A DNA stretch of 62,639 nucleotides. It comes from Candidatus Omnitrophota bacterium. GTDB taxonomy: Bacteria; Omnitrophota; Omnitrophia; Omnitrophales; JACQQS01. The stretch is taken from positions 1-62,639 of the forward strand of contig JACQQS010000055.1 of the NCBI GenBank assembly GCA_016206925.1, written 5' to 3'. Position 1 is the first letter of the stretch, and the number at the start of each line of letters is the position of its first letter. The notes below the pieces were generated by a model that saw nothing but the letters and a program-made list of their open reading frames with translations, had not been told where the DNA came from and did not search any database. This document shows positions 2,811-3,773 of this stretch, one piece after another. Position numbers and translations under genes: made by a program.

Positions 2811-3773
2811 GTGATTCTGGTTGATAGGAACACAAAAGTTATTTGCCAGGGCATTACGGGCAACCAGGGTTTGTTTCATTCGGAAAGAATGCTTGAATAC
2901 GGCACGAAACTGGTCGGCGGGGTAACGCCTGGCAAGGGCGGCACCGTGATTTTGCTTCCTGCAAAATCGAGTGCAGTCCTTACTTCCGGCAGTCCTGTCG
3001 GAAGTAAGGGCGGCCAAACCGCTGCGGGCGTGCCCGTGTTTAACGCCGTAAAGGAAGCGGTGGCAAAAACCGGCGCGACTGCTTCTGTTATCTATGTGCC
3101 GGCGAAGTTTGCTCCGGATGCTGCGCGGGAAGCAGCGGATGCGGGAATTCAGCTGATTGTACTCATCACGGAAGGAATTCCGACGCTCGACATGATCCGC
3201 GTTAAAAGTTTTCTTAAGAACAAGAAAACGCGGCTGATCGGACCTAATTGTCCCGGCATCATCACGCCGGGCCAGTGTAAGATCGGCATCATGCCCGGCT
3301 ACATTCACAAGCCGGGCAGAATAGGCGTCATCTCAAGGAGCGGCACGTTAACGTATGAAGTGGTATGGCAGCTGACTTGCCTTGGCTTGGGACAGTCGAC
3401 CTGTATCGGAATCGGCGGCGATCCGGTGGCAGGCAGTTCCTTTATCGATATGCTCGAGTTGTTCCAGGCGGATGCCGATACAGAAGCAGTTGTACTCATT
3501 GGTGAAATCGGTGGACGTTCTGAGGAAGCAGCCGCTGATTTTATCCGCCGGAAGATGACAAAACCTGTCGTTGCGTTTGTGGCCGGGGCGACGGCACCCC
3601 CCGGAAAAAGAATGGGACATGCCGGCGCGATCATCGCGGGCGGCCTCGGTACGGCCAAAGAAAAAATCGAAGCGTTTCGCCGGGCCGGCGTGACCGTCGC
3701 CGATTCTCCCGCCGTCATTGGAGAAACCATGAAACGCCTCCTCGAAAGCTCTCAGCGATCAGCCTTCAGCTGA
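2811..3773 (+). CDS. sucD: Succinyl-CoA synthetase alpha subunit, carrying a 24-codon in-frame insertion
   Basis: 320 aa. GTG start. Motifs: [25 protein letters not shown] and the GHAGAII phosphohistidine loop. An extra [24 protein letters not shown] follows the GKGG motif. Confidence 0.9.
2943..3014 (+). mobile_element. 72-bp structured insertion inside sucD (MITE/RPE-like), flanked by 9-bp direct repeat AAGGGCGGC
   Basis: AAGGGCGGC occurs at 2934..2942 and 3006..3014, exactly 72 nt apart. The insert contains hairpin A (2948..2968, 8-bp stem) and hairpin B (2978..3009, 14-bp stem with one G.U). Confidence 0.55.

Follow-up and report, generated by a model that had tools for sequence, protein, structure and literature searches.

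A 72-nt in-frame insert made of two hairpins in sucD of an Omnitrophota bacterium, a probable small palindromic repeat element

The question raised by this locus is why the gene encoding the alpha subunit of succinyl-CoA synthetase (sucD) should carry, directly after the codons of its GKGG motif, 72 additional bases that form 24 stop-free codons and are occupied throughout by hairpins and a linker. The gene lies in a stretch of 62,639 nucleotides from Candidatus Omnitrophota bacterium, referred to here in its full length as the window. The E. coli enzyme was recovered as the PDB match of the window SucD at 1e-119, with an alignment that is interrupted at the insert, CoA_binding and Ligase_CoA are the Pfam domains found on SucD homologs, and the catalytic GHAGA motif is intact. 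An earlier, sequence-only reading of this DNA had claimed that the protein contains 24 codons more than E. coli SucD, and the comparison bears this out: the E. coli protein reads PGKGGTTHLGLPVFN, aligning on both sides of the segment with nothing between.

The beginning of the gene presents a separate peculiarity. In the relatives, sucD starts as ATG TCG ATT, overlapping the sucC stop codon, and the window reads ATGTGATT at positions 2805-2813, one base shorter than the relatives, which places the ATG out of frame. Because of this missing base, the start must be the GTG at 2811, and residue 2 is absent. The shortened start could be real or a sequencing error.

The insert is bounded by two perfect copies of the 9-bp sequence AAGGGCGGC, exactly as previously described, at 2934-2942 and 3006-3014 and thus spaced by 72 nt, so that 63 nt lie between the repeats and 72 nt are counted when one repeat is included. 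The two hairpins that had been proposed within it were also found, and both proved to be longer than first thought: hairpin A, placed at 2948-2968, extends to a 13-pair structure over 2941-2974, and hairpin B, placed at 2978-3009, extends to 16 pairs at 2976-3011 (Table 1). The predicted fold consists of two side-by-side hairpins and not of one stem-loop. A 101-nt stretch containing the insert reached -53 kcal/mol (z = -5.9), a value that none of 200 shuffled sequences equaled. In our own hairpin scan, the two strongest hairpins of the whole 62.6-kb window were the copy of B in sucD and a second copy in the leader of nrdJ, and a covariance model built for B scored the sucD copy at 80 bits. The linker that joins both hairpins matched twice in the window, against 0.24 matches expected. 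Terminal inverted repeats were not found, as the ends of the insert (ACCGTGA... and ...GGAAGT), read from the sequence together with every register shift allowed by the 9-nt repeat, are not complementary.

Table 1. Coordinates of the sucD insert and of the related structured block in the nrdJ leader (window positions).
Feature	Position	Strand	Remarks
sucD, succinyl-CoA synthetase alpha subunit	2811..3773	+	320-aa ORF; host of the insert
Left copy of the 9-bp repeat AAGGGCGGC	2934..2942	+	Corresponds to the gene's own Lys-Gly-Gly codons in GKGG
Right copy of the 9-bp repeat	3006..3014	+	Begins with 6 bases that form the 3' end of hairpin B's stem
Hairpin A module	2941..2974	+	Stem in two parts, GCAC/GTGC below and 9 bp above (2947-2969), separated by an internal loop and capped by TTCCT
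Linker motif AAATCGAGTGCAGTC joining A and B	2964..2978	+	Also at the nrdJ locus, minus strand
Hairpin B module	2976..3011	+	16-pair stem, loop GTCC
Composite structured block, nrdJ 5' leader	36314..36480 (approximate)	+	Downstream of the promoter/inverted-repeat region, upstream of the RBS
13-bp perfect inverted repeat CTTTGAATTCGTC / GACGAATTCAAAG	36327-36339 / 36418-36430	+	Encloses hairpins C and B
Hairpin C (third hairpin of the nrdJ block)	36345-36369	+	Inside the 13-bp inverted repeat
Second hairpin B with flanks GTGCAGTCC...AAGGGCAGG	36372..36414	+	Same strand as the sucD copy
Second hairpin A module and linker	36430..36469	-	Opposite strand relative to B; from alignments and linker match

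An alignment of SucD orthologs had been suggested as a check on the insert. The best 120 SucD homologs were listed, and the orthologous DNA was retrieved for five. Among these 120, proteins are 288-302 residues long, the exceptions being P0002 with 318 aa, a protein of 394 aa and the window protein itself, and the alignment revealed the extra segment only in the window SucD and in P0002, with about 115 others lacking it. P0002, encoded on contig L001 (Logan SRR32573209) and not known to the earlier reading, contains a 72-nt insert specifying 24 residues at the identical place. An assembly artefact was ruled out by this presence of the insert in two independent assemblies. The insert of L001 folds as that of the window does (z = -6.2), and its right-hand repeat has drifted to AGGGGCGGG. 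Three relatives provided empty sites, each with a single KGG-coding 9-mer: L027, encoding P0005, reads GGT AAG GGC GGC followed by CAA ACC, that is, one AAGGGCGGC|CAAACC, and is the only one identical to the repeat; L029 carries AAAGGGGGC (AAA GGG GGC), with two synonymous differences; and L002 carries AAAGGGGGA (AAA GGG GGA), with three. The orthologs lacking any equivalent segment indicate that it is a derived insertion and not an ancestral loop.

The distribution of the insert on the SucD tree is patchy. When the insert is excluded, P0002 is 93-95% identical to the insert-free proteins P0004, P0005 and P0006, and L001 groups with the insert-free L027 and L002, to which its amino-acid identity is 93-94%. 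The window SucD is nearest to the insert-free L029 and to P0003/P0241, at 90%. The best named relatives are MAGs of Omnitrophota and Planctomycetota. Three scenarios fit this pattern: two gains at the same site, one gain followed by at least three losses, or a similarity kept by exchange with other copies. A short-patch homologous transfer between the lineages was considered and rejected, since the flanks are, up to the repeats, as diverged as the rest of the gene.

The two carriers made it possible to compare how insert and host gene evolve. Nucleotide identity between the window and L001 is 87.5% in the insert versus 75.2% in the flanking sucD codons, and third codon positions are identical in 22 of 24 cases (92%) versus 43.7% in the flanks (Fisher p = 5e-6). 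Even the closer pair L001/L027 is exceeded by the third-position identity of the insert between the window and L001 (p = 0.006). Peptide identity runs the other way, with 75% in the insert versus 86% in the flanks. Indeed, only two of the nine differences within the insert fall at third positions, versus 165 of 218 in the flanks (p = 0.0015). Seven of the nine are located in stems, and neither the two loops nor the linker differ. Two stem pairs have changed on both sides between the two sequences, two have passed from G.U to Watson-Crick and one has broken. When the three copies of hairpin B were compared, 4 of its 16 pairs had changed on both sides and 97.9% of cells remained paired, a figure that falls to 31-52% in the control with slid partners; for hairpin A the corresponding numbers were 2 of 13 pairs and 94.9% of cells. 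In total, six stem pairs of A and B are altered on both sides and one broke; the compensatory pairs claimed earlier between the copies of B are real. On these comparisons, the insert behaves like structured non-coding DNA rather than like a selected peptide, and it is either younger than its host gene or under a different constraint.

The second copy of hairpin B lies in the 5' leader of nrdJ. It had been described as 36/43 identical to the sucD copy, a figure that holds with the limits then used and becomes 35/41 over 36372-36412. The two copies find each other within the window by BLAST at E = 4e-4, with no matches in shuffled sequences, and under the covariance model the nrdJ copy reaches 76.8 bits on the plus strand versus 31.8 on the minus strand. 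Beyond what had been noticed before, the nrdJ locus contains a copy of hairpin A and of the linker (AAATCGAG[T/G]GCAGTC), on the opposite strand and about 85% identical to the sucD version, with a compensatory change from A-T to C-G in the lower stem of A. The whole sucD insert is collinear with the minus strand of 36372-36469, in the order A, linker, some 20 extra bases and then B. In sucD the modules A and B thus share a strand, whereas at nrdJ each lies on a different one, and this difference in relative orientation indicates that they are arranged as a mosaic. The block as a whole spans roughly 160 nt and folds at -91.5 kcal/mol (z = -7.9).

This block is absent from L025, whose NrdJ is 81% identical and whose leader measures about 105 nt versus about 265 nt in the window, being alignable at an upstream inverted repeat, at the -10 box and over roughly the last 60 nt before the start codon. 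As the sucD relatives likewise lack the insert, both loci represent presence/absence differences among close relatives. The boundaries of the nrdJ block are fuzzy, and a possible flanking repeat, TGGAAA(A)GCA, is insecure. The left flank of the sucD insert, ACGCC, resembles a flank of the nrdJ block. Length differences within the NrdJ protein were also considered and turned out to be ordinary linker variation. Upstream of nrdJ, both the window (36237-36289) and L025 (9851-9905) possess a conserved 16-bp inverted repeat, CTACAAGATATGGGGC ... GCCCCATATTGAGTAG, followed by TATAAT, which we take to resemble an NrdR box pair plus a -10 element.

The known loci of the element amount to two in 62.6 kb (sucD and the nrdJ leader) plus one ortholog (L001). 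With all filters off, the covariance model of B detected only these three copies in the window and in 67 kb from L001, L002, L025, L026 and L027. The exact-core pattern CTTCYGRCARTCCTGYCRGAAG produced 13 hits in genome contigs (GTDB, 596 Gb) and 8 in JGI metagenomes, all with unrelated flanks and attributable to chance, and none in IMG/VR viral contigs, where the linker pattern gave a single chance hit. BLAST searches of plasmids and phages with both loci yielded no matches. A six-frame protein search with the element returned 159 word candidates, none of them scoring, the query being too short for power. Rfam gave noise only, whether the entire window was searched at the gathering threshold or both loci were searched with E values of up to 10. 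No comparable in-frame insert in a well-conserved protein was seen when about 25 window proteins were compared with their orthologs in related contigs, and no transposase-like family, HUH and RAYT included, was found among the ten otherwise unannotated window ORFs scanned.

The origin of the 9-bp repeat deserves separate consideration. The empty site of L027 has a single copy of the 9-mer, and AAGGGCAGG, which follows hairpin B at nrdJ, matches the repeat at 7 of 9 bases (chance about 1e-3). The right-hand 9-mer is thus largely made up of hairpin B, and the left-hand one corresponds to native codons. A target-site duplication is therefore not required to explain the repeat; entry by way of a common core or of microhomology may fit at least as well as duplication after a staggered cut. 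A third AAGGGCGGC exists at 999-1007 and is unoccupied, so the 9-mer by itself is insufficient for insertion.

The explanation that we favor, with reasonable though far from complete confidence, is that the insert is a small non-autonomous palindromic repeat element made of modules A and B plus the 9-bp repeated core. This mobile-element reading is supported by the status of the segment as an insertion, by its rearranged relative at nrdJ, by the compensatory changes and by an evolution like that of non-coding DNA. According to this proposal, the element would have inserted where the gene encodes the turn just after the CoA-binding motif GKGG of SucD, and there it would be translated as an additional disordered surface loop that the enzyme tolerates. 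The hairpins would be features of the element itself, related to recognition or mobilization or to self-correction of palindromes, and not an adaptation of SucD. The 9-bp repeat would permit precise loss through slippage, and loss followed by re-insertion, or integration directed by the core, could generate the patchy distribution. Slippage between 9-bp repeats across a hairpin is, mechanistically, an easy route of loss. The earlier proposal of a structured mobile element family is therefore retained in part: a related second structured locus does exist, and a family would rest on only two loci and one ortholog. Its analogy with the Rickettsia palindromic elements stands as a functional likeness and not as membership, given differences in size, architecture, peptide conservation and host.

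Some of the same evidence can be accommodated by a one-off templated insertion, in which a polymerase switching template at AAGGGC(G/A)G copied palindromic DNA resembling the nrdJ leader into sucD; no transposing family would then exist, and the insert would have spread or persisted through inheritance, being lost again and again by slippage between the 9-bp repeats. Such an event would account for the six or seven of nine repeat bases that belong to hairpin B and recur after B at nrdJ, for the lack of terminal inverted repeats, for the resemblance of the left flank to that of the nrdJ block, and for the failure to find other copies in the window, in the 67 kb of relatives or in public scans. 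However, the orientation of the modules differs from that in the nrdJ block and the divergence is about 15%, which requires at least one other source copy. Moreover, a single old event explains neither the patchy tree nor an insert less diverged than the synonymous positions of its host; this low divergence, unpaired bases included, is hard to reconcile with one old event followed by neutral drift. We regard a templated origin as unlikely.

That two non-sister lineages have the insert at the same site, on the same strand and in the same frame is difficult to square with random transposition. A further conceivable reading is a homing-like micro-element, protein-less and of roughly 63 nt, whose 3' core AAGGGCRG, at the end of hairpin B, would pair or recombine with a chromosomal match. 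Such behavior would imply independent entry into two lineages having the site AAGGGCGGC, with AAAGGGGGN lineages staying empty. The idea is quite speculative and we hold it improbable; if true, it would describe a micro-element that targets coding sequence.

It is comparably doubtful that the insert is an old, functional nucleic-acid structure, that is, a selected RNA or DNA signal in the sucCD message with a similar one in the nrdJ leader, serving perhaps as a site for RNase III or a binding protein or as a ribosome pause for folding or assembly, and kept in some lineages and lost in others. Nucleotides conserved beyond the peptide, loops and stems conserved with compensatory stem changes, and the transcription of both loci on the sense strand in highly expressed housekeeping genes would all agree with such a role. 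Nevertheless, the closest relatives (L027, L029 and L002) lack the insert, as does nearly every SucD listed, the nrdJ block is missing from L025, no Rfam match was obtained, and neither a terminator nor a promoter signal was found. In addition, compensatory change in palindromes can also come from self-correction by template switching, without selection, as in quasipalindrome mutagenesis.

As for the protein, the earlier reading had placed the segment in a loop immediately after GKGG. An AlphaFold2 model of the window SucD (50 sequences, mean pLDDT 82.7) agrees with it, predicting a disordered loop in the turn between the strand that ends in GKGG and the strand QTAAGVPVF: residues 41-67 are modelled as coil with pLDDT below 50, and the rest is confident, gaps in most alignment rows being enough to lower confidence in that region. 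From the E. coli structures 1SCU and 2SCU, we assume that this turn lies at the edge of the CoA-binding Rossmann domain, where Lys42 contacts CoA. Because both diverged carriers preserve 24 stop-free codons without any indel, the ribosome presumably reads through the insert, and the added segment would be, as the model suggests, a disordered surface loop rich in Ser, Pro and Gly that the enzyme tolerates. Hardly credible, finally, is a programmed translational bypass with take-off at GGC 2940-2942 and landing at GGC 3012-3014 that would leave the mature SucD canonical: identical 9-nt sequences, hence matched Gly codons, do bound the insert, a stable stem-loop begins at the take-off codon, and the known bypass inserts of T4 gene 60 and of the Magnusiomyces mitochondrial byps are likewise hairpin-rich mobile inserts in essential genes with matching codons at their bounds (that bypass inserts are themselves mobile elements is documented in bioRxiv 10.1101/2022.08.31.505936), but the known gaps are not in frame and begin with a stop or unreadable codon, whereas the codon after take-off is here ACC or ACT, neither stop nor undecodable, the frame, which a bypass does not need, is intact over exactly 24 codons in both carriers, and the landing codon of L001 is GGG, a mismatch to the take-off GGC.

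In-frame palindromic elements in conserved genes have been described as Rickettsia palindromic elements (RPEs), ERIC and Correia (PMC10969869, PMC2229807). In the descriptions available from these sources, the RPEs (Ogata et al. 2000, 2002) are 105-146 bp long, pair their terminal inverted repeats into one long stem-loop, have a conserved translation product, and occur in tens of copies and only in Rickettsia (PMC10969869, PMC2229807). The sucD insert shares with them the nature of palindromic repeat DNA that lies in frame and stop-free in a conserved housekeeping gene, and the occupation of non-coding sites as well; the extra segment, if translated, may likewise be compatible with the fold. 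It differs in its length of 63 nt with a repeat of 9 nt in addition, in its two independent hairpins that lack terminal inverted repeats, in its poorly conserved peptide, in coming from another phylum and in being known from two loci only. The likeness to REP/BIME sequences lies in the units themselves (A of 34 nt and B of 36 nt), which are imperfect palindromes in mosaic orientations, devoid of coding capacity and present in a transcribed leader. REPs are extragenic by definition, carry a 5' GTAG recognized by the RAYT transposase, have no flanking repeat and reach hundreds of copies. Here, in contrast, one copy lies inside a gene, the bases before B are GTGCA and not GTAG, and none of the ten ORFs scanned encodes a RAYT. 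The modular hairpins are closer to REP/BIME without showing the hallmarks of REPs. A third comparison is with MITEs (ERIC, the 107-bp Correia/NEMIS and YPAL), which are small and non-autonomous, have short direct repeats and filled and empty sites, and are occasionally fused in frame (PMC2229807). ERIC, Correia and YPAL end in terminal inverted repeats, usually duplicate a TA target, measure 100-170 bp and have copy numbers that are known, and Delihas described ERIC and Correia palindromic repeats fused in frame into conserved genes (PMC2229807). The sucD insert is similarly small and has no transposase of its own, and it lacks the terminal inverted repeats. By their descriptions, the RPE, ERIC and Correia families are set apart from the sucD element, which is not a member of these or of any other described family.

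Palindromic selfish DNA in frame within essential genes is textbook knowledge for Rickettsia and sporadic in enterobacteria and Neisseria. If the small-element explanation is true, it would extend to a free-living uncultivated lineage near Omnitrophota, with groundwater and environmental relatives, and in the form of an element much smaller and differently built than those known. The existence of filled and empty orthologous sites makes this an unusually clean case, in which one stretch of 72 nt can be examined both at the level of DNA and at that of peptide. The DNA is conserved and the peptide is not, which directly indicates selection or recent spread acting on the nucleic acid. The insert would also constitute a natural experiment on the extra loop length that the CoA-binding turn of succinyl-CoA synthetase tolerates, and a warning for annotation, as lineage-specific 'loops' can be repeat DNA.

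Further small palindromic insertions are found near the suc operon in this clade and, like the second palindromic family of the window described below, speak for the small-element reading. In the window, a palindrome with 23-bp arms at 3749-3799, AGCGATCAGCCTTCAGCTGACAG / CTGAGAGCTGAAGGCTGACAGCT, overlaps the sucD stop codon; two A's are missing before it in comparison with L001 and L002, as a result of which the C-terminus reads SSQRSAFS and not KALKA. The spacer between sucD and the next gene (3821) measures 47 nt in the window; L001 has 6 nt there, and L027 has 440 nt. In L027 (10886-11326) and L029 (1245-1413), sucD is followed by an element resembling a MITE, whose ends TTTGCTTGCTTTAGGCA...TGCCTAAAGCAAGCAAA are inverted and which contains nested inverted repeats of 17-19 bp; it belongs to a family different from that of the sucD insert. 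L029 also contains, at 232-359, a palindromic sucC-sucD spacer of about 130 nt with the inverted repeats GTCATTGCGAGG...CCTCGCAATGAC; in other lineages the stop and start codons of sucC and sucD overlap.

Other repeats are found elsewhere in the window. A palindromic family, GTCATTCCCGCGAAAGCGGGAATC, has at least five copies (25438-25464, 58730-58790 and 61449-61546), some of them as inverted pairs, with the compensatory variants CCCCCGC/GCGGGGG. The inverted pair at about 58.73-58.79 kb lies within a 792-aa ORF (56775..59153) that has a secretin domain at residues 269-427, and the frame stays open through it (...VIPAKAGIQ...). Near the beginning of the window, the start of sdhB (ATGCCGGAATCTGTGCGG...) is exactly duplicated over 44 nt, at 41-84 and 389-432, around a 348-nt segment with a small ORF (168-388, about 73 aa); the arrangement resembles an insertion flanked by a long junction duplication. 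Most direct-repeat families of the window come from the ORFs 8108-13279 (1723 aa) and 15251-20899 (1882 aa), which carry repeated Asp-rich units resembling FG-GAP/calcium-binding sequences.
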